Origin: Minisyncoccota bacterium
Lineage (GTDB): Bacteria; Patescibacteriota; Microgenomatia; UBA1400; PJMF01
DNA: 64,000 nucleotides
Direction of reading: 5' to 3'
NCBI GenBank assembly: GCA_018657765.1
Contig: JABHWM010000005.1
Span: 65,138-129,137, forward strand
Made by a program: the position numbers and the translations under genes. Within the stretch, counting starts at the first letter, position 1; each line of letters starts with the position of its first letter. The notes under the pieces were generated by a model that had not been told where the DNA came from, did no database searches, and saw nothing but the letters and a program-made list of their open reading frames with translations. Of this stretch, positions 32,615 through 61,876 are shown one piece after another.

Positions 32615-32659
32615 TTTCTTTGATGATAAAAGCTCAATAAAAAAAATGAAAGGTTACTT

Positions 32660-33577: not shown

Positions 33578-33580
33578 AGC

Positions 33581-34611: not shown

Positions 34612-34632
34612 ATTTTATAAGGATTTTATCCA

Positions 34633-37853: not shown

Positions 37854-37877
37854 GTAAAATAAGGTATAAAGGGGTAT

Positions 37878-39611: not shown

Positions 39612-39652
39612 AAGCAAAATAAAAGATATAATAGAAAAACAATTTTCAACTT

Positions 39653-40480
39653 ATGAATAATAAAATTACAGTAATCAGACCAAGACCTAAATGGCAACTA
39701 ATTAATATTCGTGAGATTTTAGAATTTTCAGAGCTTTTTTATATATTTTCTTGGAGAGATATTAAGGTTAGATATAAGCAAACTATTCTAGGTATATTGT
39801 GGGCTATTTTGCAACCCTTGTTGTCGATGATAATATTTACTATTTTCTTTGGAAATTTTGCAAAAATTCCATCAGACGGGCTTCCTTATCCTGTCTTTGT
39901 ATTATTAGGTCTTATTTTTTGGGGGTATTTTTCCAGCTCTCTTTCAAGAGCATCTACTGTGTTTATAGATAATGAAAACCTTATAAAAAAAGTATATTTC
40001 CCAAGAGAGATATTGCTATTTTCAACAGTTATAACTGCCTTCATTGATTTTTTAATTAGCTTTTTCTTATTTATAATAGTAGCTCTTTTTTATAACATTC
40101 CATTTAATTTTCTATTTTTAAGTATGGTTTTTTTATCAATTTTAATTTCTGCATTGGCTAGTACTGGACTAGGGTTACTGGTTGCTTCAATAAATATTAA
40201 ATATAGAGATGTTAGGTATATTATTCCTTTTTTTCTTCAACTAATGATTTTTATTACACCAGTTATCTACCCTTTAAGCATTGTTAGACCATCTTTTCAA
40301 TTTGTTTTGTCAATGAATCCAATGGCTGGAGTTATAAATTCTCTTAGATCTTCCCTTGCCACAAATTCAATTTCTGATAAAAATAGTTTATTTATATCAA
40401 TATTATCTTCCCTAATTATATTTCTAATTGGAATGATCTATTTTAGAAAAACAGAACGTTATTTTGCGGATTTAATATGA
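39653..40480 (+). CDS. wzm: ABC-2 type polysaccharide/teichoic acid export permease
   Basis: 275 aa, six hydrophobic helices. N-terminal block WRDIKVRYKQTILGILWAILQPLLSMIIFTIFFG is typical of Wzm/TagG/KpsM permeases. Confidence 0.85.
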   Translation: MNNKITVIRPRPKWQLINIREILEFSELFYIFSWRDIKVRYKQTILGILWAILQPLLSMIIFTIFFGNFAKIPSDGLPYPVFVLLGLIFWGYFSSSLSRASTVFIDNENLIKKVYFPREILLFSTVITAFIDFLISFFLFIIVALFYNIPFNFLFLSMVFLSILISALASTGLGLLVASINIKYRDVRYIIPFFLQLMIFITPVIYPLSIVRPSFQFVLSMNPMAGVINSLRSSLATNSISDKNSLFISILSSLIIFLIGMIYFRKTERYFADLI

Positions 40481-41697
40481 AAAAAATTATTGAAGTAAAG
40501 AACATTTCAAAAAAATATAAAATTGGTGAAAATAAGCCATATTTAACATTACGTGATTCAATATCAAGCTTTTTTACAAATTTTTTTAATAAAAACAAAG
40601 AAGATAAATTACAAAAAGATGAATTTTGGGCATTAAAAGATATTAGTTTTACGGTAAATCAGGGTGATGTTGTTGGAATAATTGGAAAAAATGGTGCTGG
40701 AAAAAGCACATTACTAAAAATTTTATCAAGAATTACAACTCCTACTTCTGGAGAAATTAAAATGAGAGGAAGAGTTGGTAGTCTCTTGGAGGTTGGAACC
40801 GGTTTTCAACAAGAATTAACTGGAAGAGAAAACATTTTTTTAAATGGATCTATTTTAGGAATGAAACAAAAAGAAATAAGTAAAAAATTTGCTGAAATAG
40901 TTGATTTTGCTGAAATAAGCAAGTTTATAGATACCCCAGTAAAACATTATAGCTCTGGAATGTATATGAGATTAGCATTTTCAATAGCTGCTCACTTGGA
41001 ACCAGAAATATTAATCATTGATGAAGTTTTAGCAGTTGGAGATCAACAATTTCAAAAAAAATGTCTTGGAAAAATAGAAGACATATCTTCCAAGGAAGGA
41101 AGAACTGTTTTATTTGTAAGTCATAATATGACAGCTATTGAATCACTATGTAAGTCAATTATTCTGCTTGAAAATGGTAAAATAATTAAAAATAAAAATA
41201 AAAATAAACAAATTTATGATTATTCGAGGATTGCAAGAAATAGCTATAAGAAAGATTTGAAAATCAAAAATTCTTTAAAAATAGAAAATGTGAAACTATC
41301 ACCCAAAAAAATAAGCTGTGGAGATAGTACTTCTTTTTTTCTTAAAATATCTTCTCTAAAAAAAACAAAAATAAATGATATTTGTTTGATAATTTCAAAT
41401 AGTCTTGGATCTAGGGTTGGAATTGTAGACCTAAGAAATGTAAATAATTACCCACTGAATGTAGGTGAAAAAATATCTTTTAATGGAGAAATTAATAATG
41501 TAAACTTAATAGAAGGAAATTATGATGTTTCATTATATATAAAATACGACAATATTAATGAAGAACATTTGTTTAATTTAGATAAGTTTTTTGTGGAATA
41601 CAAAAAAAAACGACCAGGGTTATCCCAATATCAAGCAAGTGTCAGAGGCATCATTAATTTCAATGAAAAATTTAATTATAAAATAAATAAAAAATGA
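40477..41697 (+). CDS. wzt: polysaccharide export ABC ATPase with about 150-aa C-terminal extension (Wzt-like)
   Basis: Walker A GKNGAGKST, signature YSSGMYMRLAF, Walker B ILIIDEVLAVGD, H-loop VSHNM. A KNKNKNKQ linker follows, then a non-ATPase C-terminal domain (about 41224..41694) without TM helices. Confidence 0.85.
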   Translation: MKKIIEVKNISKKYKIGENKPYLTLRDSISSFFTNFFNKNKEDKLQKDEFWALKDISFTVNQGDVVGIIGKNGAGKSTLLKILSRITTPTSGEIKMRGRVGSLLEVGTGFQQELTGRENIFLNGSILGMKQKEISKKFAEIVDFAEISKFIDTPVKHYSSGMYMRLAFSIAAHLEPEILIIDEVLAVGDQQFQKKCLGKIEDISSKEGRTVLFVSHNMTAIESLCKSIILLENGKIIKNKNKNKQIYDYSRIARNSYKKDLKIKNSLKIENVKLSPKKISCGDSTSFFLKISSLKKTKINDICLIISNSLGSRVGIVDLRNVNNYPLNVGEKISFNGEINNVNLIEGNYDVSLYIKYDNINEEHLFNLDKFFVEYKKKRPGLSQYQASVRGIINFNEKFNYKINKK

Positions 41698-42566
41698 TAA
41701 AAAAAATTCTCTCACCACTTCATTATTCTTTTGTTTTTGTAAAAAATAATTTTTTACAAAAATATAAAACAATAATATATTTTTTTATTAAAAAAACTAA
41801 TAGAATAATAAATATAAAAATTAATTTTAAAAAAATAAAACTTTATTCAAGTGGTCAAATTGCAGAACTCCTATACACATCTGAGTTTGAAAAAGATATT
41901 TTAAGCATATATTCAAAGTATTTGAAAAAAGGAGATATTATAATAGATGTTGGCGCCAATATAGGTCTTTATTCAATTATTGCAGAAAAGTTTATTGGTA
42001 AAAATGGAAAAATTTATGCCTTTGAACCTTCTGAAGAAGTTTTTTTAAAGTTCAAAAAAAATATTAAATTAAATAATTCAAAAATAATAAACTTAAATAA
42101 AAAAGCTGTTTCAAAAAAAAATGGGAAAGTTGCACTAGTAGTAGATAAATTACTTGGAGATGGATATTCATATATTTCTAAAAATAAATTATTTTTAGAT
42201 ACATACAGTCATGTAGAGTCGATAACATTAGATTATTTCTTTAAAAGAAATAATCTTAAAAAAGTAAATTTCATTAAAATAGATGTAGAGGGTGGAGAAC
42301 TATCTGTTTTAGAGGGAGCCAAAAATATCTTATTAAGCAATAAAAAGCTTGTTATTCTTCTAGAAAACTCAAATGAGGGATTAAAAAGATTCGGTAATAA
42401 TCAAAAAGATCTATACTTATTTTTAAAAAATATGGGTTTTAAAATAGCAGCATGGGATAATAATTCAAAAAAATGGACTAATAAAATTTCTCAAACTAAA
42501 AAAATAGGAAATATTTGGGCTTATAAAGGAAATATGAAAGAAAGTATTTTTGATTTAAAACCCTAG
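41694..42566 (+). CDS. FkbM-family SAM-dependent methyltransferase
   Basis: Blocks IIDVGANIGLYSIIAEK, YAFEPSEEVF and IKIDVEGGELSVLEGA. Confidence 0.75.
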   Translation: MIKKILSPLHYSFVFVKNNFLQKYKTIIYFFIKKTNRIINIKINFKKIKLYSSGQIAELLYTSEFEKDILSIYSKYLKKGDIIIDVGANIGLYSIIAEKFIGKNGKIYAFEPSEEVFLKFKKNIKLNNSKIINLNKKAVSKKNGKVALVVDKLLGDGYSYISKNKLFLDTYSHVESITLDYFFKRNNLKKVNFIKIDVEGGELSVLEGAKNILLSNKKLVILLENSNEGLKRFGNNQKDLYLFLKNMGFKIAAWDNNSKKWTNKISQTKKIGNIWAYKGNMKESIFDLKP

Positions 42567-42569
42567 ACT

Positions 42570-44207
42570 ATGAAAAAAATAAAAGCAATAGTTCTATGTG
42601 CTGGTAAAGCAAATAGAGAAATACAATCCACAATTTCTACCTCTATTAACTCTTTAGCACCAATTAATGGCAAACCAGTCATTGGTTGGATAATTGATGA
42701 TTTGCTATCAAAAAAAATAGAAACAATTACCATTGTTATAAACAAAAATCAAAATAAAATAAAAAGATATATCACTAGTGCTTATAAAATGGAATCTATT
42801 TCAGTTGAAACTACTCATGGTTCTAATATAAATCAATCAATTAAAGATGGCTTAAAAAAAGATCTAAAAAAAGACAGAGTTTTAGTAATATTAGGTGATA
42901 CTTTAATTAATGAAAAAACTCTAAATTTAAAAGAAAGTTGTGCCTTTATATCGTTAGTTGATAACCCAAAAAAATGGTGTGTTATAGAAACAGATAATTT
43001 AGGTTATATAGTTAAATATACAAATAAAATAAACTCACTTTCTATAAAAAAAAGTAAAGCGCTTGCTGGTTATTATTATTTTTCTAGCAGTAAAGATTTA
43101 AATTTAGCTGTTAATAAAACCATTAGCAATAAACTGGAAAATATTAGCGATGTTTTAATGGAATATAGTAAAAAGAATAAAATAAAGGCAATATCAACTA
43201 AGAATTGGTTTGACTTTGGAAATATTGAAAACTTTTTAAAAGCAAAGAGAGAATTATTTTTACCTAGATTTTTTAATTCAATAAGAGTTAATAGTAATTT
43301 AAATATTCTTTATAAAAAAAGCTCCAATATCAAAAAATTAGAAGATGAATACAACTGGTATAAAAAAATACCAAAAAACCTACAACCATTCACTCCAAGA
43401 ATCATTTCTTTTGTGAAGAAGATAAAAAGTGCAGAAATAACTCAAGAGTACTATGGATATCCAACTCTTTCAGAATTATTTATATTTAGTGATTTTGATG
43501 CTGAAATGTGGAAAATTATTATTAAAAAAATATTAATGGTTCATGAAGAATTCAGAAAAAACAAAAATAAAATAAATAAAAATCAAATAAATAAAATGTA
43601 TTATTTGAAAACAATTAATAGATTAGAAAAATCAAAAATAAATAAAGATAACAAAAAAATAATAGAAGAAAAAACACTAATTTTAAATAATAAAAAGTTA
43701 AGGGGATATTTGGAGTTAAAAAAGGATATTTATAAATATTCTAATAAATTGTCAGAAAATTTAGAAAGCAGCATTATTCATGGTGATTTTTGTTTTTCAA
43801 ATATTTTATTTGATTTTTCAAGTCAAATAGTAAAATTAATAGATCCTAGAGGTAGTTTTGGAAATAAATCTATATTTGGCGACCCACGGTATGACATAGC
43901 AAAATTAAGACATAGCTTGTCTGGAGGATATGATTATATAAAATCAAACATGTTTGTTTTAAAAAAGCTAGGTGATAGTTTTTCATTAAAAATTGATAAA
44001 AATAAAAAACTAGATGACTTATCAAGTTACTTTGATATGCAAATATCAAAAAACGGATATAATAAAAGGGAAATAAAATTCATTGAAGGAATATTATTTT
44101 TATCAATGGTTCCACTACATGATGATAAACCAGACCATCAGTTAGCCTTTTATTTAATTGGAGTTGAAATATTAAATGAAGTATTTAGTTATGGAAAGTC
44201 TATATGA
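42570..44207 (+). CDS. fusion protein: N-terminal nucleotidyltransferase plus C-terminal APH/choline-kinase-type kinase (LicC-LicA-like architecture)
   Basis: N-terminus: AIVLCAGKANRE...LAPINGKPVIGWIIDDL and NWFDFGNIENF (sugar/phospho-alcohol nucleotidyltransferase fold). C-terminus: Brenner-type kinase motif IIHGDFCFSNILFD followed by KLIDPRG (43779..43855). Confidence 0.6.
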   Translation: MKKIKAIVLCAGKANREIQSTISTSINSLAPINGKPVIGWIIDDLLSKKIETITIVINKNQNKIKRYITSAYKMESISVETTHGSNINQSIKDGLKKDLKKDRVLVILGDTLINEKTLNLKESCAFISLVDNPKKWCVIETDNLGYIVKYTNKINSLSIKKSKALAGYYYFSSSKDLNLAVNKTISNKLENISDVLMEYSKKNKIKAISTKNWFDFGNIENFLKAKRELFLPRFFNSIRVNSNLNILYKKSSNIKKLEDEYNWYKKIPKNLQPFTPRIISFVKKIKSAEITQEYYGYPTLSELFIFSDFDAEMWKIIIKKILMVHEEFRKNKNKINKNQINKMYYLKTINRLEKSKINKDNKKIIEEKTLILNNKKLRGYLELKKDIYKYSNKLSENLESSIIHGDFCFSNILFDFSSQIVKLIDPRGSFGNKSIFGDPRYDIAKLRHSLSGGYDYIKSNMFVLKKLGDSFSLKIDKNKKLDDLSSYFDMQISKNGYNKREIKFIEGILFLSMVPLHDDKPDHQLAFYLIGVEILNEVFSYGKSI

Positions 44208-44563
44208 GAATAATTATTGATCTAGACGGAGTAATTTGTCCAATAAAGCTCCCTAATCAGACTTATGGAGAACTGAAACCAATCTATGGCTCAATTAAAA
44301 AAATTAAGAAATTAAAAAAAGAAGGTCATCATATAATAATTAATACTGCCAGAAATATGGCAACGCAAAAAAGCAATATTGGATTAGTTAATAAAAATAT
44401 CACTCTAATAACTTTAAAATGGCTGGAAAAATATAAGGTAGAATTTGATGAAATATTTTTTGGAAAACCTAATGGAGATGTTTACATTGACGACAGAGCA
44501 CTAAAATTTGATGGTTGGGAAACCATAACCACTAGAAATTTAGAAAAAGAATTTAAGAAATAA
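44204..44563 (+). CDS. small HAD-superfamily phosphatase
   Basis: 119 aa. Motif I IIIDLDGVI, motif II INTAR, motif III/IV K...GDVYIDDRA. ATGA overlap with the upstream gene. Confidence 0.65.
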   Translation: MRIIIDLDGVICPIKLPNQTYGELKPIYGSIKKIKKLKKEGHHIIINTARNMATQKSNIGLVNKNITLITLKWLEKYKVEFDEIFFGKPNGDVYIDDRALKFDGWETITTRNLEKEFKK

Positions 44564-45277
44564 ATGAAAATAATAATGCCAATGGCTGGGCTGGGATCTA
44601 GGTTTAAAAATAGTGACTATTCATTGCCAAAACCACTAATAATGGTTGAAGATAAGCCGATGTTTTTAAAATCATTAGAAAGCATAGATGGAATTAACTA
44701 TTCAGACATATATTTTATTGTTAAAAGGGAACATGACCTAAAACATGCTATTTCAGATATAATTAAAAAAAATGTTCCTAATTCTCATGTTTTTTTAGTA
44801 GATGATACTCCAAATGGACAGTTGATGTCTATTTTATCAATTGAAGAAAAAATTAATAAAGATGAAGACTTATTAATTATTAGCTCGGATACATTAGTTG
44901 TATCTAATTTAAAAAAGAAAGTTTTAAGTTTACCAGAAAGTTATAAGGGATTAATATCGCTCATAAACAAAAAAGGTGATCAGTGGAGCTTTGCAAAAAT
45001 AAATAGTTCTGGAGATGTAACTGAAGTTGCAGAAAAGAAGAGAATATCTAGTTTAGCCAGTACTGGAATATATTATTTTAAAAATGGGAAAGAATTTGTA
45101 AAATTATCTAAAAAAATAATAAAGAAAAAAATAAAAGTAAATGATGAATATTATGTAATGCCAGTATACCAAGAATATATAAATGCTAAATTTAAAATTA
45201 GCTCATCAATTGCCAAAGAAATGTGGGATATGGGAACTCCAAAATCATTAAAAGAATTTTTAAATAAAAAACAATGA
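44564..45277 (+). CDS. sugar-phosphate nucleotidyltransferase (GT-A-like NTP transferase fold)
   Basis: Blocks IIMPMAGLGSRF, LPKPLIMVEDKPM and a C-terminal MWDMGTPKSL. Confidence 0.65.
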   Translation: MKIIMPMAGLGSRFKNSDYSLPKPLIMVEDKPMFLKSLESIDGINYSDIYFIVKREHDLKHAISDIIKKNVPNSHVFLVDDTPNGQLMSILSIEEKINKDEDLLIISSDTLVVSNLKKKVLSLPESYKGLISLINKKGDQWSFAKINSSGDVTEVAEKKRISSLASTGIYYFKNGKEFVKLSKKIIKKKIKVNDEYYVMPVYQEYINAKFKISSSIAKEMWDMGTPKSLKEFLNKKQ

Positions 45278-46362
45278 TTAAAATAGCTATTCAAAACATC
45301 CACTTGGCTCCAAATATTTTTGACATAGGAATTCATGATTATATTTTAGAATTTATAAAAAATGGATATGCTCCATATATTTATTTTGAAGGTCTTTCTT
45401 TTAGAGAAAAAATATCAATTACTAACTCTCTAATAAGAGGAAATCACTCTAAAATTAGTTTAAAAAAAATAGAACCAATCTTCAATATTAATGAATTAAA
45501 TAGTAAGTGTGATGTTTTATTAAATTTTAATACTTATACAAAAGACCATGATTTTACTAAAAATATAAAAAAATTCAATGGGTTGAAAATTTGGCATGTA
45601 GGAGATTACTTTTGGAATGAGCCAGCAAGTGATATAAATAAAAGATTTGAAAAATTTGGAATAGATTATTTATTTGGATATTCATCTCATGATAAGTATT
45701 GCAAATATTTTCAAAAAACTTTTCCTAAATACATAGATAAAGTTTTACCAATTCCATTTGGATATCAAAAAAGATTTAAAGAAGTAAACTCCTTTAAAAA
45801 TAGAATAAATAAGTGTATTGCTCTTGGGAGTGTGAATCCACTTCGTCCACTAAATTACCCTGTGAATAACTATATAGAGTCAGCAGATTTTTTCCCAGAC
45901 GATCAATGGTTTCATAAGTTCCGAAGAAAAATAGTACTGAATAAAAATTATTTGGGAGGTGAAATTGATTCTATGCTTCCAGAATTTCCAAAAATAAAAA
46001 ACTTTGATTACGACTTAGTTGAAAAACTAAATAATTACAAGATGTTTACTTCATGTGAAAGCATATTTAATTTTCCTCCAGCAAAAACTTTTGAAGGAAT
46101 TGCTTCTGGCTCTGTTTTAATTTGCAGTGATCATGAGTGCAATAAAGAATATGGTTTTGTTGATGGCATTAACTGTGTAATGTATAAAAAACATAATATT
46201 ACTGATTTTAGAAAAAAAATAAGATATTATCAAAGTCATGAAAAAGAACTAATAAATATTAAAATAAATGGAAAAAAGCATGTAACAAAAAACTATAACC
46301 ATGTTTCAATATCAAAAAATATGTATAAGCAAATAAAAAATACTTGGAATAAAAAAAGTTAA
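45274..46362 (+). CDS. CgeB-like GT-B half-domain glycosyltransferase (Glyco_trans_1_2-like C-terminus)
   Basis: The C-terminal block FEGIASGSVLICSDHECNKEYGFVDGINCVMYK...RKKIRYYQSHEKEL resembles the CgeB/DUF3880-type GT family. The N-terminus has no recognisable motif. Confidence 0.4.
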   Translation: MIKIAIQNIHLAPNIFDIGIHDYILEFIKNGYAPYIYFEGLSFREKISITNSLIRGNHSKISLKKIEPIFNINELNSKCDVLLNFNTYTKDHDFTKNIKKFNGLKIWHVGDYFWNEPASDINKRFEKFGIDYLFGYSSHDKYCKYFQKTFPKYIDKVLPIPFGYQKRFKEVNSFKNRINKCIALGSVNPLRPLNYPVNNYIESADFFPDDQWFHKFRRKIVLNKNYLGGEIDSMLPEFPKIKNFDYDLVEKLNNYKMFTSCESIFNFPPAKTFEGIASGSVLICSDHECNKEYGFVDGINCVMYKKHNITDFRKKIRYYQSHEKELINIKINGKKHVTKNYNHVSISKNMYKQIKNTWNKKS

Positions 46363-46365
46363 ACA

Positions 46366-48129
46366 ATGATCAAATTATTTTTTTACAAAATCACAGAATT
46401 TATAAAAATAGAAAATAAAAAATATTTTCTCTATCATTTTTTTATTAGAAATCTATCAATGGAGCCTTGGCAACATTTTTATAAAACATTAAAAAAATCA
46501 AGATTGAATAAAATTGAAATTACAAATTTAAATAACAAAAAAAAACCAATAATTGTATTTTCAGCATGCCAAAATAAAAAGAACAAGGGAGATTCTAAGT
46601 TTAATGGTGGTATTAAATTACAAAATCTATGGGTTAAAATTCTCAGAGATCATGGATATGATGCTTATATAATGACATATGATGGGAAACATGCTAATTG
46701 GTTGATAGATCACCAACCACACATATCTTATAAAAGATTATCTAATTTAAAAAATAATCATGAAAATATTCACTATGTAACAACTTGGTTAAATGCTGAT
46801 TCATTCATTAACTTAGCTGATAAAATTTATTATTTTGATGCAGAGATCTCACACACTTTATCATCACAAAGGGAAGTACTTAGAAAACTTTTTAAAAAAA
46901 ATAAAATTATCAAGGTTGGTACTCATTCAAAAACTCAAGTTGGATGGTATTTACAAAACCAAAATTTATCACCAAACTTTATAAATGAGTGGTCTGATAT
47001 AAAAATTTGGAAACAAAATAGCAATAAGAGGGTTTTGGGTAAAATTGGATACATGAACGAAGAAAAGAACACTAAAACTGAAATTAACGAGATAAAACAA
47101 GTTTGTGAATTACACGGAATTGACGTAGATTTTATTGAAATAAATGGAGATGAAAAAAAAGTTATTTCCCAAATGCAATCATGTGATATTTTCTTGGGAA
47201 TGAATCAAGGAAAAAACATACTGTGGGGAGAAGGTTGCCCAAGATCTCAGCAAGAAGCCATGCATACTGGTTGTGCTGTTATAGCCTATGATGTAATTGG
47301 AAATAGAGAATACATCTTTGATGACATAACTGGATGTATGATTGAAAATAAAAGATCAGACTTAATGGCTTTAAAAATAATTGAGATAATAAATAATAAA
47401 AAATTTAAAGAAAAAATTAGAAAAAATGGCTACGAATTTATAAAGAATGTATTTTCTGAAAATGGTAAAATTAAATTATTGGAGAAATTTTTAGATTTAG
47501 AAAAAGAAGAAGAGGATAAATATGTTGCAAATCTAGATGAGTTGAAATTTGTTTTCAAATCAGCTATTTTTCTAACAGATTCAGAAGTTAGAAGTCTTCA
47601 AAAATATGCAAAAAAAACAAAAGGTAGTATCCTAGAAATAGGAGCAGCCTATGGAGCTTCATCTTCATTGCTTCTTGCGCATTCATCTGAAAATAAGAAA
47701 GTATTTTCAATTGATCCATTCATTAAAGACTCAGAAGGCCTATTCAAAGCAACTGCTAATAAATGTAAAAAAAACGTGAATAGATTCTTAAAAAATGTTA
47801 ATCTTGAAAAAAAATATAAAAATTGGCAATTAATTGAAAAATACAGTGATGATGCTGTTAAAAATTGGAAAAGGAAGATTGGATTATTATTTATAGATGG
47901 TAATCATAAATATGATTTTGTCAAAAATGATTTTGAAAATTGGATAAAATTTATCCCAAAGGATGGATATATACTAATACATGATTCTTGTAATAAAAAC
48001 TTAATAAATAAAAATAAATATAAGTTTGGTTGGTATGGACCATCAAAACTAGCTAAAGAACTTAGAAGTGATAAAAGAGTTAAATTAATTGAGGAATCAT
48101 CATCTCTATCAATTTGGAAAAAGAAATAA
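46366..48129 (+). CDS. fusion protein: GT-B-like glycosyltransferase domain plus C-terminal class I SAM methyltransferase
   Basis: Middle block QQEAMHTGCAVIAYDVIGNREYIFDDITGCMIEN (GT1-type C-terminal half). C-terminus (about 47518..48129) has GSILEIGAAYGASSS, LFIDGNHKYDFVKNDFENW and GYILIHD, a CmcI/Methyltransf_24-like pattern. Start uncertain. Confidence 0.55.
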   Translation: MIKLFFYKITEFIKIENKKYFLYHFFIRNLSMEPWQHFYKTLKKSRLNKIEITNLNNKKKPIIVFSACQNKKNKGDSKFNGGIKLQNLWVKILRDHGYDAYIMTYDGKHANWLIDHQPHISYKRLSNLKNNHENIHYVTTWLNADSFINLADKIYYFDAEISHTLSSQREVLRKLFKKNKIIKVGTHSKTQVGWYLQNQNLSPNFINEWSDIKIWKQNSNKRVLGKIGYMNEEKNTKTEINEIKQVCELHGIDVDFIEINGDEKKVISQMQSCDIFLGMNQGKNILWGEGCPRSQQEAMHTGCAVIAYDVIGNREYIFDDITGCMIENKRSDLMALKIIEIINNKKFKEKIRKNGYEFIKNVFSENGKIKLLEKFLDLEKEEEDKYVANLDELKFVFKSAIFLTDSEVRSLQKYAKKTKGSILEIGAAYGASSSLLLAHSSENKKVFSIDPFIKDSEGLFKATANKCKKNVNRFLKNVNLEKKYKNWQLIEKYSDDAVKNWKRKIGLLFIDGNHKYDFVKNDFENWIKFIPKDGYILIHDSCNKNLINKNKYKFGWYGPSKLAKELRSDKRVKLIEESSSLSIWKKK

Positions 48130-48869: not shown

Positions 48870-49963
48870 CAAAAATATTACTATTTGCAAACATAGGAAC
48901 TTTTGGTGGGACAAAAACACACCTAAAAAACTTATTAAATTATTATACTAATAAAAAGACTGATATTTGGATTGCATCTGACACATATGAAAATGTTTTA
49001 AAAGTACTAGATCAATTAAAGTTAAAAAAAATTAAAGTAATAAGAATTCCAAAAAAACCAAAAATTTTAGTATTTTTTTTTAATTACCTGATTCCCATTA
49101 ATATCTTATTTGATTTAATTATTGTAAAATTATTGATTATAAAAATAAAACCAAATTTTTTTATTGTAACTCCAGCATCATTAACTTGGTATATTTCATC
49201 CTCTATTATTGACTTAAGAAAAATATTTATAATACATTCATATCCAGAAAAAAAAATTTCTTCTATTTTTAAATTCTTATTAAAAATAAATAAACAAAAA
49301 ACAAAGATAATAACTGTATCTAAAGAATCTAAAAATAAAATAGTAAGGAATTGGGGAGTTAATTCTGATTATGTCTATAACCCTCCTGAAAAATATGTCT
49401 TAAAAAAATTAAAAAAAACCATAATCCTAACTTCAGGACATCTTGAATGGTATAAAGATCCAATGAGCTGGTTGGAGGTTGTAAAAAAGATATCTTTAGT
49501 TAAACCTGATATTAAATATAAATTTATTTGGATTGGATCTGGAAGCCTGAAAGATAAAGTAAAAAACTTAATAAAAAACCATAAATTACAAAAATACTGT
49601 GAAATCATTGATCCTAAGAAAGATCTTTCTTCACTTATTTCTAAAACTTACATATATTTTCAACCAAGTATAATTGAAAGTCAGGGAATAGTCGTTACAT
49701 CTGTTCAATATAATAAAATACCTGTTGTTTCAACAACAGCAGGAGGATTAAGTGAAATGGTAATTAATAATAAAACAGGACTTACTGTTAACCCCAAAGA
49801 TACTACAGCTATGGCTGAATCAATCATAAAAATGATAAATAACCCAAAAAAAGTGATTAAAATGGGTTTAGAAGGAAAAAAGCATATTGAAAAAATAGCA
49901 AGTGAACAAAATTGGAAGAATAGAATGGACTCCTTCCATAAATCAATGGATTTGGAAATATGA
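48866..49963 (+). CDS. GT-B fold glycosyltransferase (GT4)
   Basis: Block FQPSIIESQGIVVTSVQYNKIPVVSTTAGGLSEMV (E-x7-E-like) and a typical GT4 length. Confidence 0.65.
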   Translation: MTKILLFANIGTFGGTKTHLKNLLNYYTNKKTDIWIASDTYENVLKVLDQLKLKKIKVIRIPKKPKILVFFFNYLIPINILFDLIIVKLLIIKIKPNFFIVTPASLTWYISSSIIDLRKIFIIHSYPEKKISSIFKFLLKINKQKTKIITVSKESKNKIVRNWGVNSDYVYNPPEKYVLKKLKKTIILTSGHLEWYKDPMSWLEVVKKISLVKPDIKYKFIWIGSGSLKDKVKNLIKNHKLQKYCEIIDPKKDLSSLISKTYIYFQPSIIESQGIVVTSVQYNKIPVVSTTAGGLSEMVINNKTGLTVNPKDTTAMAESIIKMINNPKKVIKMGLEGKKHIEKIASEQNWKNRMDSFHKSMDLEI

Positions 49964-50856
49964 ACACACCAATAGTTTTAATAATTTTCAAACGGAGTCA
50001 ATCTGTTAAAAAAATAATAGATATTCTCAGGATATTTAAACCAACAAACATATATGTTATTGCTGACGGCCCAAGAGAAATCAATGAGAAAAGTGATTGT
50101 AAAAAAGCTAGAGAAGAAATTGATAAAATTGATTGGAATTGTTCTATAAGTAAAAATTACTCTTTAAAAAATCTTGGTTTAAAAAAAAGATTCAAATCTG
50201 GCCTTGATTGGGTTTTTGAAAATGAAAGTAAGGCAGTTATCTTAGAAGATGATTGTATTCCAGATCCATCATTCTTCAAATACTGTGATGAATTGCTCAC
50301 TAAGTATAAAAATAATAAAAAAATACTAACCATATCTGGAAATAACTTTAATTTTACTGAGGAAAGTGAGCTAAAAAATAGTTACTTTTTTTCAAAATAC
50401 CCACTAATCTGGGGATGGGCTACTTGGAAAAGAACTTGGGATTTGTATGATGAAGATATTAGTGACTGGAACATAAATAAAACTAAATGGCTTGACAAAA
50501 TATATAAATCTAAAATAATTAAAAAATATTGGAAATTAATATTTAACAAACTATCCAAAGAAGAAATAAATACATGGGATTACCAATTAACTTATCTTTC
50601 TTTAAAAGAAAATGGGTTAAACATTATTCCTTCAATAAATTTAGTTAAAAATATTGGAGTCGATTCAAAATCAACCAATATTAACAAAAAATCTAGAAAT
50701 ACAAATTTAAGAGCAAATAAAATTAAATTTCCGTTAAATCATCCAAAAAAAATATCTACCCAAGAAAATATTGAATCAAAAATAGAAGAAAGATGTTACC
50801 TTAACTCTAGAATTAAGGTTTCCTTATTTATTAAATCTATTCTTGGAATTATTTAA
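49960..50856 (+). CDS. GT-A fold glycosyltransferase of the HlpA-like/GnT-I-like type (copy 1)
   Basis: Blocks PIVLIIFKRSQSVKKII, IYVIADGPRE, VILEDDCIPDPSFF and YPLIWGWATWKRTWDLYD. Clear paralog of ORF 53582..54475. Confidence 0.55.
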   Translation: MNTPIVLIIFKRSQSVKKIIDILRIFKPTNIYVIADGPREINEKSDCKKAREEIDKIDWNCSISKNYSLKNLGLKKRFKSGLDWVFENESKAVILEDDCIPDPSFFKYCDELLTKYKNNKKILTISGNNFNFTEESELKNSYFFSKYPLIWGWATWKRTWDLYDEDISDWNINKTKWLDKIYKSKIIKKYWKLIFNKLSKEEINTWDYQLTYLSLKENGLNIIPSINLVKNIGVDSKSTNINKKSRNTNLRANKIKFPLNHPKKISTQENIESKIEERCYLNSRIKVSLFIKSILGII

Positions 50857-50860
50857 TTAA

Positions 50861-51709
50861 ATGAAAAATAAATACTTAAAGCAAGAAAAACACCATAATA
50901 AAATTTTAGGGAGAAAATACCCATGGGATAATGCTGATAGCGTTGATTCTTGGAGACACAAGAGAATGCATCAACTAATTAACCCCTTTTTGGAAAAAAA
51001 AGGAAAGAAGTGGCTTACAGTAGGTGATGGTGGATTTGGAAGAGAAGCTCACTATATAGAGAAAATGGGAGGAGATGCGGTTGCCTCAGATATAGCAGCA
51101 AAGCCCCTTATTATTGCAAAAAAAAGAAGATATATAAAGAAGTATAAAAAGGTTAATGCCGAAAAAATGCCCTTTAAAAACGGCTCTTTTAACTATGTCC
51201 TCTGTAAAGAATCCTATCATCACTTTCCTAGGCCCATTATATCTTTATACGAGATGATAAGGGTTTCTAGAGATGCATCTATTTTGATAGAACCAAACGA
51301 TGTGATGAAAAGAAAAATCTCTTTAAAAAACTTCCTTTCAATAGAAAATATAAATAATTATATCGACAGATTTGAAATCTCTGGAAACTATGTTTACCAA
51401 ATTAGTAGAAGAGAAATGATTAAGGTTGCTTATGGACTAGAATTACCATTAATTGCTTTTAAAGGGATAGATGATCACTATATAGAAGGAGTTGAAAGTG
51501 AGATTTTTGATAAAAAAGGTAAAAAATATAAAAAAATAAAATTTGTTTTAAAAATATTAAATATTTTGTATAAGCTAAGACTTAGAGATAGAAGTATCCT
51601 AGCTATTATTTTCTTTAAAAGAACACCTAACAAAGATGTTCTCAATAAATTAATGAAAGATAACTATAATTTACATTTTTTGAAAAATAACCCATACTCC
51701 TATAAATGA
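50861..51709 (+). CDS. class I SAM-dependent methyltransferase
   Basis: Blocks WLTVGDGGFGREAHYI, AVASDI and NAEKMPFKNGSFNYVLCKESYHHFPRP. Confidence 0.65.
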   Translation: MKNKYLKQEKHHNKILGRKYPWDNADSVDSWRHKRMHQLINPFLEKKGKKWLTVGDGGFGREAHYIEKMGGDAVASDIAAKPLIIAKKRRYIKKYKKVNAEKMPFKNGSFNYVLCKESYHHFPRPIISLYEMIRVSRDASILIEPNDVMKRKISLKNFLSIENINNYIDRFEISGNYVYQISRREMIKVAYGLELPLIAFKGIDDHYIEGVESEIFDKKGKKYKKIKFVLKILNILYKLRLRDRSILAIIFFKRTPNKDVLNKLMKDNYNLHFLKNNPYSYK

Positions 51710-52497
51710 TTAATAAAAAAATAAAACAACCATGTAAGCTTTGTAAAAACAATGCTGGCTTTATATTTGATAAAAAAATAATGAATAAGTATCTATCTTC
51801 ATATTATGAATGTAAAAAATGCAAATTTATTCAAACAGAAAAACCTTATTGGCTGAAAGAAGCCTACGAAAATCCAATAAATGACGAAGATACTGGATTA
51901 ATTAGAAGAAATTTTGGAATGTCTAAAATTTCTTCTATAGTAATTTTCTTTTGGTTTAATAAAAGGGGGCTATTTTTAGACTATGCTGGAGGATATGGAC
52001 TCTTGACCAGACTAATGAGAGACATTGGTTTTAATTATTATTGGACTGATCCATTCTGTTTAAACATTTTCTCTCCAGGATTTGAGTTAACTAAAAAAAA
52101 TAAAAAAATTGAACTAGTAACTGCATTTGAATTATTTGAACACATGGAAAATCCAATAAAAGATCTTGAAAAAATATTGAAACACTCCAAAAATATTCTA
52201 TTTTCAACAAAACTAATCCCAAAAAATACGATAAATATCTCAAAATGGGATTACCTTTATCCTGAACATGGTCAACACATTTCATTTTATTCCCAGGAAT
52301 CTTTGGAAAATTTAGCAAAAAAATATAAACTCAATTATTATACTGATGGAGTCATGATTCATCTTTTTACTGAGAAAAAAATATCTAAAATACTATTTTC
52401 TAATATACCTAGGTTTAAAGATATTTTATATTTTTTTTCAAAAATAGGTTTATCATCAAAAACTCATGAAGATAATATTCGTATAGGAAAAAAATGA
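51706..52497 (+). CDS. SAM-dependent methyltransferase with N-terminal Cys4 zinc-ribbon
   Basis: CKLCKNN...CKKCKF, then FLDYAGGYGLLTRLM and IELVTAFELFEHMENP. This architecture is seen in sugar C-/O-methyltransferases. Confidence 0.6.
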   Translation: MINKKIKQPCKLCKNNAGFIFDKKIMNKYLSSYYECKKCKFIQTEKPYWLKEAYENPINDEDTGLIRRNFGMSKISSIVIFFWFNKRGLFLDYAGGYGLLTRLMRDIGFNYYWTDPFCLNIFSPGFELTKKNKKIELVTAFELFEHMENPIKDLEKILKHSKNILFSTKLIPKNTINISKWDYLYPEHGQHISFYSQESLENLAKKYKLNYYTDGVMIHLFTEKKISKILFSNIPRFKDILYFFSKIGLSSKTHEDNIRIGKK

Positions 52498-53579
52498 AAG
52501 TATTATTTGATCATCAGGTTTTTTCTTGGCAAAAGACAGGAGGTGTCTCTAGATATTTTACTGAATTAATGACAAAGATGATTCAGAAAAAAATAAACAT
52601 TTTTTTAAGTGGTATTTTTACTGAAAATATATACATTAAAAAAATAAATAATTCATTAAAAAAAGTAAGTAATTATTATATTCCTGGAAAAACAATTTTA
52701 ATAAAAAAAATAAATAAGATCTCTACAATAAATACTCTTAATAAAAACAACTTTGATATTATTCATCCAACAGGATATGACCCTTATGTGTTTAAGTATT
52801 TAAAAAAATCAAAATTAGTAATAACAATTCATGACATGATTTATGAAAAGTTTCCAGAATACTTTCCGAAAAGTGGGGCTGAAAATAAAAAGAAAATGAT
52901 TTTATCTGCTGATGCAATAATAGCCGTTTCAAATAAAACCAAAGAAGACATTATTAGTTTGTTAAAAGTAAACCCAAAAAATATATACGTTGTACATCAA
53001 GGAGGGTTGATGGGTGTAAAAAACGAAGTAAAAAATAGTGAAAACCCCTTAAAATATTTTTTGTATGTGGGGGATAGAGATAAATATAAAAATTTTTCTC
53101 TATTGATTGAGGAGATTAAATATATTTTAAAAAAGAATAAAAAAATAAAGATTCTTTGTGTTGGAGGTGGAAAATTTAAAACCAAAGAACTTGATCTAAT
53201 GGGAGAATTTAAAAATAGATTTATTCAATTAAACTTAACTGACAAGGAACTTATCTGGGCATATAGGCATGCCTTAGCCTTAATTATTACATCTTTATAC
53301 GAAGGCTTTGGTATACCTGTAATTGAAGCAATGTCACTAGAATGTCCAGTAATACTAAATAAAACATCATCTTTACCAGAAGTTGCCGGAGATGCTGGCC
53401 TTTATTATGATTCAAACAAAAAGAATGATTTAAAAAATAAAATTAATTATCTTTTAAATAACCCTAAACAAAAAAAGGAATTAATTAGAAAAGGGTATCT
53501 TAGAGCAAAGAAGTTCTCATGGGAAAAGTGTGTAAAAGAAACTATCTCTGTTTACAAAAAAGTTTTGAAAGAGAAATAG
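52494..53579 (+). CDS. GT-B fold glycosyltransferase (GT4)
   Basis: Blocks FLYVGDRDKYKNF and IITSLYEGFGIPVIEAMSLECPVILNKTSSLPEVAGD. Confidence 0.8.
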   Translation: MKVLFDHQVFSWQKTGGVSRYFTELMTKMIQKKINIFLSGIFTENIYIKKINNSLKKVSNYYIPGKTILIKKINKISTINTLNKNNFDIIHPTGYDPYVFKYLKKSKLVITIHDMIYEKFPEYFPKSGAENKKKMILSADAIIAVSNKTKEDIISLLKVNPKNIYVVHQGGLMGVKNEVKNSENPLKYFLYVGDRDKYKNFSLLIEEIKYILKKNKKIKILCVGGGKFKTKELDLMGEFKNRFIQLNLTDKELIWAYRHALALIITSLYEGFGIPVIEAMSLECPVILNKTSSLPEVAGDAGLYYDSNKKNDLKNKINYLLNNPKQKKELIRKGYLRAKKFSWEKCVKETISVYKKVLKEK

Positions 53580-53581
53580 TA

Positions 53582-54475
53582 ATGAATAAAACAGAACCTT
53601 TTTCTACACCGATCATTTTTATATTTTTTAACCGTTCAGAACATATTGTAGAGACACTATCTGTCTTGCAAAAACTAAAACCATCCAAACTATACCTAGT
53701 AGCTGATGGCCCACGAAATAATAAAGAGAGAAAACAAATTCAAAAGGTAAGAAAACTAGTAGAAAAAAATATTATCTGGAAAACAAAAGTTACTAAAATA
53801 TATGCTCATAAAAACATGGGCCTCAGAAACAGGATAGTCTCTGGACTAAATAATGTCTTTGAAAAAGAAGAGACAGCAATAATAATGGAAGATGACTGTA
53901 TTGCAGATCAATCTTTTTTCAAATTCTGTGATGTTTTACTAAAAAAATATAAAAATAATAAAAAAATTGGAAGTATTACTGGAGATAACTTTTTATTCAA
54001 TCAAGAAAAACAAAAGAATAGTTACTATTTTTCTCAGTATCCTCACTCATGGGGTTGGGCTACCTGGAAAAGAGCTTGGAATTTATTTGATAACGAAATG
54101 AGTGACTGGAAAACTGTTTGGAGTAAAAAACAATTTACTTCACCTCTAGTAAAATGGTATTGGTATCTTGTTTTTACACTTGTTACTAAATTAAAAATAG
54201 ATTCTTGGGCCTATCGTTGGACATATAGTTGCTTCAAAAATAATTTATTGACTATTATTCCAAGAGAAAATCTGGTACAAAATAAGGGTGTTGGTAAAAC
54301 AGCTACTAATACAAAGCTAAAGAACTCTGTTCTAGATATGAAGGCATATGAGCTTTCTTTTCCTCTAAAACATCCCGCCCGTGTTCTACAAAATAAAAAT
54401 TATGATGCTCTGACTGAAAAAAACTTATATATAAAGTTTAGAACCATTGTTGGAGCCATACTGAAATTTATATAA
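53582..54475 (+). CDS. GT-A fold glycosyltransferase of the HlpA-like/GnT-I-like type (copy 2)
   Basis: The track ORF starts at 53519 inside the upstream gene; ATG 53582 follows the upstream stop. Blocks PIIFIFFNRSEHIVETL, LYLVADGPRN, IIMEDDCIADQSFF and YPHSWGWATWKRAWNLFD. Confidence 0.55.
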   Translation: MNKTEPFSTPIIFIFFNRSEHIVETLSVLQKLKPSKLYLVADGPRNNKERKQIQKVRKLVEKNIIWKTKVTKIYAHKNMGLRNRIVSGLNNVFEKEETAIIMEDDCIADQSFFKFCDVLLKKYKNNKKIGSITGDNFLFNQEKQKNSYYFSQYPHSWGWATWKRAWNLFDNEMSDWKTVWSKKQFTSPLVKWYWYLVFTLVTKLKIDSWAYRWTYSCFKNNLLTIIPRENLVQNKGVGKTATNTKLKNSVLDMKAYELSFPLKHPARVLQNKNYDALTEKNLYIKFRTIVGAILKFI

Positions 54476-55218
54476 TGAATACTGGTCTCACATCAAAATC
54501 ATTTTGGTTAAAATACTGGCAAACTAAAGATCTTGTAATTCCTATCAAAAAAAACTATCCATTCTCAGATCTTTTTCAAAAATATTGTTCACCAAGACAA
54601 CTAAAAACTTTCTTGGAAATTGGTGGTTTTCCTGGATATTTTGCTATTTATCTAAAAAAACATCTTGGATATGAAGTTAGTTTGCTAGACTATGTTGTTC
54701 AACGAAAAACTATTCATAAACTATTAAAAAAGAATGGCTTAAAGAAAAAAGATCTAATAGTTCATGAAAAAGATTTTTTTAATTTTTCTACTAAGAAAAA
54801 ATATGATGTAGTATTTTCTTCTGGATTTATAGAACACTTTGAAAATTATGATGAAATAATAAAAAAGCATTGGCAACTTACTAACAAAGGTGGTGTAATG
54901 CTAATTATCTTACCCAATCTACTAGGCCTCAATGGTCACTTTCAGTTAATGTTTGACCCAGATAATCTCAATATCCATAACTTATCTTCAATGAATATTA
55001 AAAGTTTAAAAAAGATAATTAAAAATTTAAATCCCAGTAAATTTGAAGTAAGATACTACGGAGGATTAAGTATTTGGCTAGAGAATCTCAATCAAAAATC
55101 TCTTTTTCAAAAACTACTTGTTTATGGAGTATATGCTATTGGAAAAATATTTAAATTATTTAGAATAAATAGTAAATTTACTTCACCATTTATTTATCTT
55201 GTTGCTCACAAAAAATGA
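54475..55218 (+). CDS. class I SAM-dependent methyltransferase
   Basis: Blocks FLEIGGFPGYFAIYL, VSLLDYV and YDVVFSSGFIEHFENYDEI...GGVMLIILPN. Confidence 0.6.
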   Translation: MNTGLTSKSFWLKYWQTKDLVIPIKKNYPFSDLFQKYCSPRQLKTFLEIGGFPGYFAIYLKKHLGYEVSLLDYVVQRKTIHKLLKKNGLKKKDLIVHEKDFFNFSTKKKYDVVFSSGFIEHFENYDEIIKKHWQLTNKGGVMLIILPNLLGLNGHFQLMFDPDNLNIHNLSSMNIKSLKKIIKNLNPSKFEVRYYGGLSIWLENLNQKSLFQKLLVYGVYAIGKIFKLFRINSKFTSPFIYLVAHKK

Positions 55219-56363
55219 AAAAACCTTCCATACTTATGATCGGCACAGCAGACACTATGGGTGGGGCAGCCCGTCAAAGTTGGATCCTGGGTCATGAATT
55301 AAAATCTAAAGGATATAAAGTTAGATGGTTAGTTCGCACCAAAAAATCAAATAAGAGCTATGTTCATGGTTTTTTTAATCACTGGCAAACAAACTTTGCT
55401 CATTTGAGAAATTTTTTATTATCTAATGACCTTGATTCTGGATTAGAAAAAGAAATTTTTGATCACTCTTGGTACAAACAAGCAGATATTATTCATTTAC
55501 AAAACCTACATGGAAACTACTTTAGACTAAAATCTATTATCAGGATTTCTAAAGAAAAAAAACTAATTTGGACTCTACATGACATGTGGGCTATTACTGG
55601 AAAATCACCATATATCATCACTAACAAAGAGAATAATTGGCTTTATCCACCAATGTTGATAGATACTCATAAAAAATTAAAAATAAAAAAACAAAAAATC
55701 TATAAACAACTAAAAAACATCCAGCTAATAACACCATCAGTTTGGCTAAATAATTTAGTTAAAAAATCGTCTCTCAAAAAGTTTGCTAACACTACTATTT
55801 ACAACGGAGTAGATACTAATAAATATAAACCAAAAAAAATAAATCAACAAAAAATAATTATAACAACAGTAATTAGCGGTGGTTTTCAAAGTCCATTTAA
55901 AGGTGGGGAATTAATCAAAAATCTAATTCCATTAATAAAAAATCTAGATTTAGAACTTCATTTTGTTGGAGGAAAGAAAAAGCATAGAGATAGCAATATT
56001 ATTTATCATGGAAAATTAGATCAAAAACAACTCATAAATCAGTATCAACAATCAACTGCTATTTTAGTTCCGTCACTAGCAGATAATTGCCCAATGGTAA
56101 TTATTGAATCATTATCTTGTGGAATACCAGTTATTGCCACCAAAGTAGGAGGAATTCCAGAGCTTATTACTCATAAAAAAAATGGTTATTTAGCAGATCC
56201 AAATCTAAATAGTCTTTTAAATGGAATAAATTGGCTTATGAAATTAAATAATAAAGAAATCAACAAAATTAAAAAAAATAATCGTCAGAAAACTCTTAAG
56301 AATTTCTCACTTTCAACAATGGTCAATAAATACGAAAAACTCTATCATTCCCTCTCTTCATAA
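55215..56363 (+). CDS. GT-B fold glycosyltransferase (GT4)
   Basis: Blocks ILMIGTADTMGGAARQ and ILVPSLADNCPMVIIESLSCGIPVIATKVGGIPELI. Confidence 0.7.
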   Translation: MKKPSILMIGTADTMGGAARQSWILGHELKSKGYKVRWLVRTKKSNKSYVHGFFNHWQTNFAHLRNFLLSNDLDSGLEKEIFDHSWYKQADIIHLQNLHGNYFRLKSIIRISKEKKLIWTLHDMWAITGKSPYIITNKENNWLYPPMLIDTHKKLKIKKQKIYKQLKNIQLITPSVWLNNLVKKSSLKKFANTTIYNGVDTNKYKPKKINQQKIIITTVISGGFQSPFKGGELIKNLIPLIKNLDLELHFVGGKKKHRDSNIIYHGKLDQKQLINQYQQSTAILVPSLADNCPMVIIESLSCGIPVIATKVGGIPELITHKKNGYLADPNLNSLLNGINWLMKLNNKEINKIKKNNRQKTLKNFSLSTMVNKYEKLYHSLSS

Positions 56364-56393
56364 TTACCCCAAAAGATGTCATAATTTCCAGAC

Positions 56394-61786: not shown

Positions 61787-61876
61787 AACTTAGAGCAAAA
61801 ATTTCATAAGTGTCAGAAATTAGTAATAAAATAAAGTTATATTATTGACAGATGTGATATTTATGACACACTATTT

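Follow-up and report, generated by a model that had tools for sequence, protein, structure and literature searches.

A probable replacement-type glycan island, AT-rich and encoding an ABC exporter, in the envelope locus of a marine Patescibacterium

The window analysed here, a 64-kb stretch of DNA (contig JABHWM010000005.1 of assembly GCA_018657765.1), carries a large locus of envelope-glycan genes. The subject of this report is a block of 17.5 kb within it, at about 38.82–56.36 kb, that is poorer in G+C than its surroundings. Pfam and NCBIfam domain searches of the open reading frames (ORFs) indicate that the block encodes the ATP-binding cassette (ABC) transporter pair Wzm and Wzt, five methyltransferase domains, nine glycosyltransferase-type genes and a three-gene sugar-activation module (Table 1). 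It is bounded by a conserved GDP-fucose-synthase-like gene on the left and a conserved Wzx-like flippase gene on the right, hereafter the left and right anchors. A preliminary description of this DNA had proposed an AT-rich, swappable, ABC-exported glycan cassette at this place. Wzm and Wzt are indeed encoded together at the left end, as ABC export would have it, and all methyltransferase domains of the window as well as the kinase and nucleotidyltransferase genes lie inside the block, as that description stated; Pfam gave no methyltransferase, kinase or nucleotidyltransferase match elsewhere in the window. A Wzy_C or O-antigen ligase domain was not found by Pfam in 38.8–56.4 kb. We consider it quite likely that the block is the hypervariable slot of a conserved envelope-glycan super-locus, a replacement-type glycan island with an ABC-exported methylated polymer. 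The host is a marine Pacebacteria-like Patescibacterium, monoderm-like, and the best genome matches of the left anchor gene are Patescibacteria and Pacebacteria metagenome-assembled genomes (MAGs).

The G+C content (GC) of positions 39653–56363 is 0.258, compared with 0.316 in the remaining window. A two-change-point maximum-likelihood fit placed the low-GC segment at 38843–55223 (0.257 versus 0.316; log-likelihood gain 103), and in 100,000 permutations of 500-bp blocks an equally AT-rich run of 17 kb never arose (p < 1e-5). In a 2-kb sliding profile the GC falls from about 0.31–0.35 to 0.23–0.27 between about 40 and 53 kb, where the AT skew also turns positive (about +0.15). The Lys/Asn/Ile-rich, AT-rich island of the preliminary description is thus recovered, together with its hand counts of G+C (6 of 60 at 42061–42120 and 27 of 60 at 24541–24600) and the peptide it quoted, with which the product of the ORF at 41694 begins. 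Its boundaries stood in part. The right edge just before the Wzx-like flippase is borne out by the homology with a close relative, L111, which runs from 56341. The left edge, both compositional and comparative, lies at about 38.82 kb, directly after the GDP-fucose-synthase-like gene and not at wzm, so that the GT2 gene at 38823–39611 is inside the block. All ORFs of 38823–56363 have a GC of 0.22–0.30 and a combined Lys, Asn and Ile fraction of 0.24–0.39, compared with mostly 0.31–0.36 and 0.17–0.25 in flank ORFs. Codon positions were compared between island proteins and soluble flank proteins, to avoid membrane-protein bias. GC1 was 0.327 in the island versus 0.446 in the soluble flank and GC2 0.268 versus 0.349, with a small drop in GC3 from 0.215 to 0.183. 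Lys, Asn and Ile were 1.5–1.8 times higher in island proteins and Ala was halved. The shift is therefore mostly at codon positions 1 and 2, i.e., in protein composition. The codon-usage comparison called for in the preliminary description also gave a difference, as synonymous usage in the island and the soluble flank is statistically distinct (chi-square p = 4e-18), though the GC3 shift is small. Further to the right (54000–59000) the GC skew is slightly negative (minimum -0.095) despite the plus-strand genes, and the cumulative skew is flat beyond about 54 kb.

Seven related genomes retain one or both flanks, and the slot genes differ in every one of them. The content of their slots was established with Pfam and with tblastn using the window proteins, and each slot holds a different set of glycosyltransferase, methyltransferase and sugar-nucleotide genes of the same functional class. 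Among the species with a long contig the nearest is Betzabe_MAG183, in which two loci (L015 and L095) on a 652-kb contig overlap exactly and cover the whole slot. Its left flank, corresponding to 27859–38813, is gene-for-gene syntenic with that of the window at 52–91% amino acid identity; the same flank is also syntenic in L016, L017, and L019. On the right flank, Wzx is 69% identical, the gene at 57571 63% and the epimerase at 62478 79%; synteny of the right flank extends to L111, L103, L097, L098, and L104. The slot between them measures 17.06 kb, compared with 17.6 kb in the window. The GT2 gene that opens the block has no counterpart at the same position in L015. Wzm is 47% identical, and Wzt is 59–62% identical up to about residue 249 and unalignable beyond it. 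About 12.8 kb of unrelated genes then follow, encoding a DegT aminotransferase, an ATP-grasp protein, methyltransferases, GT2-methyltransferase fusions, GT2s, a GT4 and a GT11. The slot closes with three genes that match those at 53519, 54475, and 55215 of the window at 66%, 72%, and 72%; these three (53519–56363, GC 0.26–0.30) are referred to as the right-hand trio. Conservation in the locus peaks at the left anchor, with 91% identity to Betzabe_MAG183 and 58–65% to MAGs labelled as other phyla. Wzm and the nucleotide-binding domain (NBD) of Wzt are 47% and 62% identical to their counterparts in Betzabe_MAG183, and up to 52% and 68% identical to those of MAGs labelled as other phyla. Because the transporter genes are no closer to Betzabe_MAG183 than to these MAGs, they are part of the exchanged material, and their contrast with the anchor places the left breakpoint directly after 38813, in agreement with the change-point at 38843.

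L111, which was found through a 90%-cluster member of Wzx and is the nearest genome with a different cassette, has a right flank 84–95% identical to that of the window in nucleotides, with amino acid identities of 91% for Wzx, 88% for 57571, 86% for 59183 and 95% for the epimerase. The nucleotide homology starts at window position 56341, 22 nt before the stop codon of the last island gene, and upstream of Wzx L111 has genes for a GT4, a GT11, a GT2, a 535-aa protein and another GT4. The 535-aa protein is similar to 53519 in its C-terminal half (57%), and the GT11 and GT2 match the cassette of Betzabe_MAG183 at 69% and 61%, an identity like that of the flanks. As a sign of recombination at the boundary, the sharp onset of homology at 56341 is suggestive only. 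L103, with a Wzx that is 74% identical, keeps 54475 (71%) and 55215 (69%). In L097, L098, and L104 Wzx is 67% identical and another gene set lies upstream of it in each; that of L097 is on the minus strand (CapK_C, DUF362, LPG_synthase_TM) and that of L098 includes a 713-aa flippase-like protein. The trio has been replaced in L111, L097, L098, and L104. The more distant Pacebacteria L016, L017, and L019 have kept the left module and differ in the genes downstream of the anchor. No orthologs of the window's 41.2–53.5 kb were found by tblastn in the slots of relatives, and for the variable-core genes at 48114–53579 the slots of the relatives examined hold no counterpart that exceeds 33% identity. 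The trio is thus common to the window and Betzabe_MAG183, the GT11-GT2 pair is common to L111 and Betzabe_MAG183, and the core at about 41.2–53.5 kb is in neither of these relatives, which makes the slot a mosaic. Judging from these alignments, replacement is piecemeal, with breakpoints that differ by lineage, and is not a whole-block swap. The claim of a compositionally deviant glycan cassette replaced between conserved flanks therefore agrees with the slots of Betzabe_MAG183, L111 and other relatives; the exchange of the cassette as one block does not.

The low GC of the slot recurs among the relatives. In all eight genomes compared the slot is 6–13 points below its own flanks (0.24–0.39 versus 0.32–0.46), and in the five closest genomes it has a GC of 0.24–0.28 with flanks of 0.32–0.40. 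Per-gene GC correlates between orthologs of the window and Betzabe_MAG183 (r = 0.80, 19 pairs), and over the same pairs the per-gene GC of the window correlates with protein identity (rho = 0.66, p = 0.002). The trio has a flank-like identity of 66–72% with Betzabe_MAG183, yet it is AT-rich in both genomes. Since vertically shared genes are also AT-rich, AT-richness is no evidence of acquisition, for which the preliminary description had taken it. Low GC is instead a persistent property of the genes in the slot and not the mark of a recent foreign donor. Its causes are likely to include AT-biased mutation acting on weakly constrained proteins of fast turnover, and perhaps a shared AT-rich gene pool. 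The slot is a clean counter-example to the equation of low GC with foreign DNA: its AT-richness resides mostly in the make-up of the proteins, orthologs inherit it, and all versions of the slot show it. Outside the island, two genes for membrane proteins are equally AT-rich, at 9614–11353 (GC 0.251) and 36360–37853 (GC 0.260). The latter is the least conserved gene of the left flank (52% identical to Betzabe_MAG183), in keeping with the association of low GC with weak conservation.

Contigs from the same species were obtained from many samples (ENA, JGI, NCBI, Logan), including Saanich Inlet and other marine metagenomes and the NCBI MAG GCA_018694315.1. The 22 population contigs that were compared are 99.95–100% identical to the window, island and flanks alike. 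ArgRS, the left anchor gene, the GT4 gene from the centre of the island and a variant of Wzx one residue from that of the window recur on many contigs from these sources. The island is as prevalent as its flanks, with the island GT4 in 33 index blocks, ArgRS in 27 and the anchor gene in 30. The comparison shows that the population is clonal, that the cassette is fixed in it and that variation is found only between species; the surface glycan had been expected to vary between strains, and this expectation was not borne out. Contig ends near the island (e.g., L010, which ends at 39674) might have hinted at heterogeneity among strains, but this reading was rejected, as the breaks are scattered and occur in low-coverage samples. 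One contig, L109 (ERZ4200951, 4x coverage), has a 1-nt deletion at the equivalent of 47807, within an A8 run (47799–47821). The deletion cuts the glycosyltransferase-methyltransferase fusion from 587 to 488 aa and truncates its Methyltransf_24 domain; it could be phase variation or a low-coverage error.

Table 1. Predicted genes of the slot, its anchors and two envelope-related genes of the same locus, with coordinates in the window.
Feature	Position	Strand	Basis
LCP-family ligase	635-1759	-	same locus
LPXTG-type wall protein, 331 aa, Cys/Pro/Thr-rich	6719-7714	-	N-terminal TM (transmembrane) segment, C-terminal LPATG and hydrophobic tail
Left anchor, GDP-L-fucose-synthase-like SDR epimerase/reductase, conserved, outside the variable block	37878-38813	+	NCBIfam GDPFucSynFcl 296 bits, under the 500-bit cutoff
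GT2 glycosyltransferase, first gene of the variable block	38823-39611	+	Pfam Glycos_transf_2; GC 0.275
Wzm, ABC-2 permease of glycan exporter	39653-40480	+	Pfam ABC2_membrane 7e-20; best NCBIfam model galactan export permease Wzm/RfbD
Wzt, 406 aa, ATPase domain (aa 1 to ~249) and C-terminal domain (aa ~270-406)	40477-41697	+	Pfam ABC_tran; NCBIfam Wzm/Wzt and TagH models
FkbM-family methyltransferase adjoining wzt	41694-42566	+	Pfam Methyltransf_21 7.5e-22; NCBIfam fkbM_fam 108 bits, over cutoff
Nucleotidyltransferase-kinase fusion, 545 aa	42570-44207	+	Pfam NTP_transferase and weak APH match
Small HAD phosphatase, 119 aa	44204-44563	+	weak HAD-like matches; NCBIfam EcbF-BcbF capsule phosphatase family, under cutoff
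Second nucleotidyltransferase	44564-45277	+	Pfam NTP_transferase
Glycosyltransferase-like, GT1-type C-terminal domain	45274-46362	+	Pfam Glyco_trans_1_2 1e-8
Glycosyltransferase (GT1/GT4) fused to Methyltransf_24, 587 aa	46366-48129	+	Pfam Glycos_transf_1 aa 245-357, Methyltransf_24 aa 423-540
GT2	48114-48869	+	Pfam
GT4	48866-49963	+	Pfam
GT-A-like protein	49960-50856	+	weak GNT-I-like Pfam matches
MT11 methyltransferase	50861-51709	+	Pfam
MT23 methyltransferase	51706-52497	+	Pfam
GT4	52494-53579	+	Pfam
GT-A-like, paralog of 49960-50856 (right-hand trio)	53519-54475	+	weak GNT-I-like Pfam matches
MT23 (right-hand trio)	54475-55218	+	Pfam
GT4 (right-hand trio)	55215-56363	+	Pfam
Right anchor, Wzx-like flippase, conserved flank	56394-57656	+	Pfam Polysacc_synt 3e-21

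The NBD of Wzt matches the Wzt of Aquifex aeolicus in the PDB (6AMX, with the same sequence in 6AN5 and 6OIH) at 4.9e-63 and the full-length Wzt 7K2T at 4.4e-62. It is also homologous to TagH/TarH structures and scores highly against TagH models. A word-indexed homolog search with the C-terminal domain found none, and an exhaustive HMMER search of 1.84 billion representatives with the C-terminal 160 residues found 137 remote relatives at 32% identity or less. Nearly all of those with a length of 390–435 aa match at their C-terminus; ten were scanned, all ten are ABC ATPases, and two of them have sub-threshold Wzt_C matches. An AlphaFold (AF2) model built on a multiple sequence alignment gave a beta-sandwich with a predicted local distance difference test (pLDDT) of 85.9. 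Its best Foldseek matches are the carbohydrate-binding domains of Wzt proteins (8DL0, 8DKY, 6O14, 2R5O, 5HNO; E-values of 2e-5 to 2e-3), from A. aeolicus (8DKY, bound to 3-O-methyl-mannose), Escherichia coli O9a (2R5O) and Raoultella terrigena (5HNO). This model replaced one made from the single sequence, which had a pLDDT of 54.7 and meaningless Foldseek matches. Judged by fold only, the C-terminal domain would be of the carbohydrate-binding type; it is specific to its cassette. Candidates for a chain terminator are the five methyltransferase domains, including the FkbM gene after wzt and the glycosyltransferase-methyltransferase fusion, and none of them is assignable as terminator from sequence. 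The FkbM methyltransferase at 41694 is a candidate chain-capping O-methyltransferase. The family of the 545-aa nucleotidyltransferase-kinase fusion has hundreds of members in many phyla, among them Chlorobi-like, Anaerolineae, Acidobacteriota, and Saprospiraceae MAGs. A PDB search with this fusion gave weak matches only, to sugar-1-phosphate nucleotidyltransferases, and no close solved structure; a scan of metagenome contigs with it, for which the back-translated patterns are of low complexity, gave only its own sequence and one match at 24%. LicC/LicA and AmgK/MurU assignments were not adopted. The nucleotidyltransferase-kinase, HAD and nucleotidyltransferase genes form a conserved module, as the same trio of genes stands side by side in L101 (7904–10631) and L102 (10001–12706) at 40–59% identity. 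These are unrelated polysaccharide loci of 44–56% GC, one of which also has Wzt_C, FkbM, and other methyltransferases.

A mechanism can be proposed from these predictions. The most likely route of replacement would be homologous recombination, either within the conserved flanks or at those genes of the slot that are themselves conserved. The glycosyltransferases of the island would probably build the polymer in the cytoplasm, on a lipid carrier, in an ABC-transporter-dependent pathway, with the three-gene kinase/phosphatase/nucleotidyltransferase module supplying an unusual nucleoside diphosphate (NDP)-sugar. The five methyltransferase domains may O-methylate the polymer, possibly including a terminal cap added by the FkbM enzyme. 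The C-terminal domain of Wzt would recognise the finished chain, Wzm/Wzt would export it, and the polymer could then be attached to the wall of the monoderm-like cell; genes for an LCP-family ligase and an LPXTG protein lie nearby.

Several observations weigh against the reading of the block as a replaced, ABC-exported glycan cassette. No donor and no second genome with the same cassette were found, including none in a divergent background, and the best non-self homolog of the core gene tested (the 545-aa fusion) is only 44% identical; as no donor was found, exchange is read from non-homology at a fixed position and was not caught in the act. A within-species variant of the cassette was not found in the 22 population contigs, and short-read assemblies may miss rare variants. 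L097, L098, and L104 have no genes for Wzm and Wzt up to 10 kb from Wzx, so that the slot is not always a cassette of the ABC type. The Wzt of the window is not matched by Pfam Wzt_C, a sequence profile of its C-terminal domain gave no match among PDB sequences, and the structural match to Wzt carbohydrate-binding domains is moderate (TM 0.43–0.64). In addition, no initiating phosphoglycosyltransferase was found, with Glycos_transf_4 (MraY/WecA) and Bac_transf absent from the ORFs of at least 100 aa in the 64-kb window; the initiating polyprenyl-phosphate glycosyl-1-phosphate transferase may be encoded elsewhere in the genome.

The lack of a close donor would also suit a history with no exchange at all, in which a vertically inherited and weakly constrained block drifted under AT bias until it diverged beyond recognition. 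The location of the AT-richness mostly at the amino acid level fits such a history, as do the inheritance of per-gene GC (r = 0.80), its lower values in less conserved genes (rho = 0.66) and the AT-richness of the vertically shared trio at 53519–56363. However, the gene sets in the slots of Betzabe_MAG183, the window and L097 have different domain families, gene numbers and gene orders and do not even all lie on the same strand, and the homology with L111 ends abruptly at 56341 beside a flank of 84–95% nucleotide identity, which is too sharp for drift. Vertical descent is also at odds with Wzt and Wzm, which resemble their counterparts in MAGs labelled as other phyla at least as closely as those of the nearest relative. 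We regard drift alone as unlikely.

An integrative mobile element from a donor of lower GC (an integrase island, a prophage remnant or a transposon-borne cluster) would account for the abrupt GC step and the distinct synonymous codon usage (p = 4e-18). Scans of the edges, however, revealed no tRNA or Rfam element and no repeats other than low-complexity A/T, and an integrative element was rejected on these grounds. Pfam found no integrase/recombinase, transposase, or phage domain in the island ORFs, and viral contigs scanned with the glycosyltransferase-methyltransferase fusion held no relative of it, so that a phage origin was dropped as well. The island genes run in the same direction as those of the flanks and adjoin them closely (gaps of 10–42 bp), and glycan genes fill the slot in every relative, all of which makes such an element highly improbable. 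Compositional jumps in metagenome assemblies, from which the window comes, can also signal a chimera of two organisms with different GC, made during assembly or binning. Against this, identical junctions (99.95–100%) occur in 22 independently assembled contigs with both edges spanned, and the relatives have the same architecture; a chimera is next to inconceivable. The replacement-type glycan island thus remains the explanation that we favour.

Variable glycan islands are well known, and their occurrence in the little-studied phylum Patescibacteria is a new example; no paper that describes such an island in Patescibacteria was found in the literature searched. The O-chain cluster of SAR11/Pelagibacterales, the glycotype islands of Alteromonas and the O-antigen/K loci of enterobacteria resemble the slot of the window in their fixed position and their non-homologous gene sets of the same class. 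The O-chain cluster of Pelagibacterales has a low GC of 23.8% versus 29.4% (PMC11898729), and the slot, at 25.7% versus 31.6%, is likewise below an already AT-rich genome. Replacement flexible genomic islands have no integrases or insertion sequence (IS) elements at their edges, and peaks of single-nucleotide polymorphisms at the boundaries are used as their hallmark (PMC4033161). The edges of the window's slot are also devoid of integrases and IS elements. Unlike serotype cassettes, the slot is found in a clonal population (at least 99.95% identity) with variation only between species, and it is replaced piecemeal with nested breakpoints and not by a swap of the whole cluster. Because the host is a monoderm-like Patescibacterium, the product is not a lipopolysaccharide (LPS) O-chain.

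The ABC-dependent O-antigen systems of E. coli O9a/O8 (WbdD-Wzt), A. aeolicus (WzmWzt) and R. terrigena O12 share with the window Wzm and Wzt, an extra C-terminal beta-sandwich and the lack of Wzy, and the window also has a methyltransferase gene directly after wzt. In Wzt of O8 and O9a the NBD is conserved and the C-terminal domain is type-specific, and the Wzt of the window is likewise conserved between cassette types in the NBD only. The window differs from these systems in having no Pfam Wzt_C domain and no WecA-type initiator, and no WbdD-like kinase-methyltransferase with a coiled-coil ruler was identified in it; its host also differs in having no outer membrane or O-antigen ligase context. 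Gram-positive systems of the Wzm/Wzt type include TagGH for teichoic acids, RgpCD for the streptococcal rhamnose polysaccharide and the S-layer glycan clusters of Geobacillus with a methyl-capped rhamnan. The window resembles these in the monoderm envelope, the proximity of the Wzt NBD to TagH/TarH, the LCP ligase and LPXTG protein and the fused glycosyltransferase-methyltransferase enzymes, and it differs in having no TagF/TarL-type genes for teichoic-acid synthesis and no rml genes.

To our knowledge, almost nothing has been established experimentally about the cell surface of Patescibacteria (the candidate phyla radiation, CPR). Their lifestyle depends on attachment to other cells, and they are subject to heavy phage predation. 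A marine Patescibacterium is seen here to have a hypervariable, AT-rich glycan slot of the kind that underlies the diversity of serotypes and phage receptors in well-studied bacteria. The slot follows the complete logic of an ABC-transporter pathway, down to an exporter with a predicted type-specific recognition domain. With the Fcl-like gene and Wzx as conserved anchors, the glycan types of the clade could be fished out of metagenomes and catalogued, which is of modest practical value. More speculatively, the lineages of the clade may have in common a pool of very AT-rich sub-cassettes that enter the one slot piecemeal, with the Wzt recognition domain swapped along with the chemistry that it reads, and the widespread nucleotidyltransferase-kinase/HAD/nucleotidyltransferase module may make a new activated sugar. 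This extension is tentative and we would not presume it to be correct; if true, it is chiefly this slot that would determine phage and/or host-cell recognition in a bacterium that lives as a host-dependent epibiont.

The block is enclosed in a run of co-directional genes of about 54 kb (7812–61786). The surrounding genes encode many GT2 and GT4 enzymes and GT-C-type (PMT_2/GT87-like) membrane proteins, and the locus also holds a first Wzx (3675), ArgRS (22606), and two more SDR sugar-nucleotide enzymes. The gene of the LPATG protein has the highest GC of the window (0.438) and its product has no Pfam match; being sortase-anchored in appearance, the protein supports a Gram-positive-like envelope. 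Within the block, the two paralogous GT-A-like genes are 75% identical in nucleotides over about 260 nt and have the motifs ADGPR, EDDC, and WGWATWKRxW in common. One of them (49960–50856) lies in the variable core and the other (53519–54475) in the trio common to some relatives, and proteins resembling them are present in the slots of L017, L098, and L111. On the right flank, the GT87/PMT_2-like gene at 59183–60874 is present in L103 (70%) and L111 (86%) and not in Betzabe_MAG183, L097, L098, or L104, which indicates that this flank also varies by presence and absence. A second small variable spot, with a flavour of defence or toxin-antitoxin genes, is located at 61790–62489 between an HNH gene and the minus-strand epimerase. 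Its small ORFs are 94–97% identical to a Gp49 (HigB-like)/HTH pair in L111, which also has a 471-aa SLFN_AlbA_2/HATPase_c_4 gene at the equivalent spot (11526–13630). Finally, a GDP-fucose-synthase-like gene with wzm-wzt immediately downstream or no more than about 2 kb away recurs in L020, L029, L034, L035, L041, L064, L067–L071, L083 and others, and the MAGs with this association are labelled Chloroflexota, Nitrospinota, Thermodesulfobacteriota, Saccharibacteria, and others.

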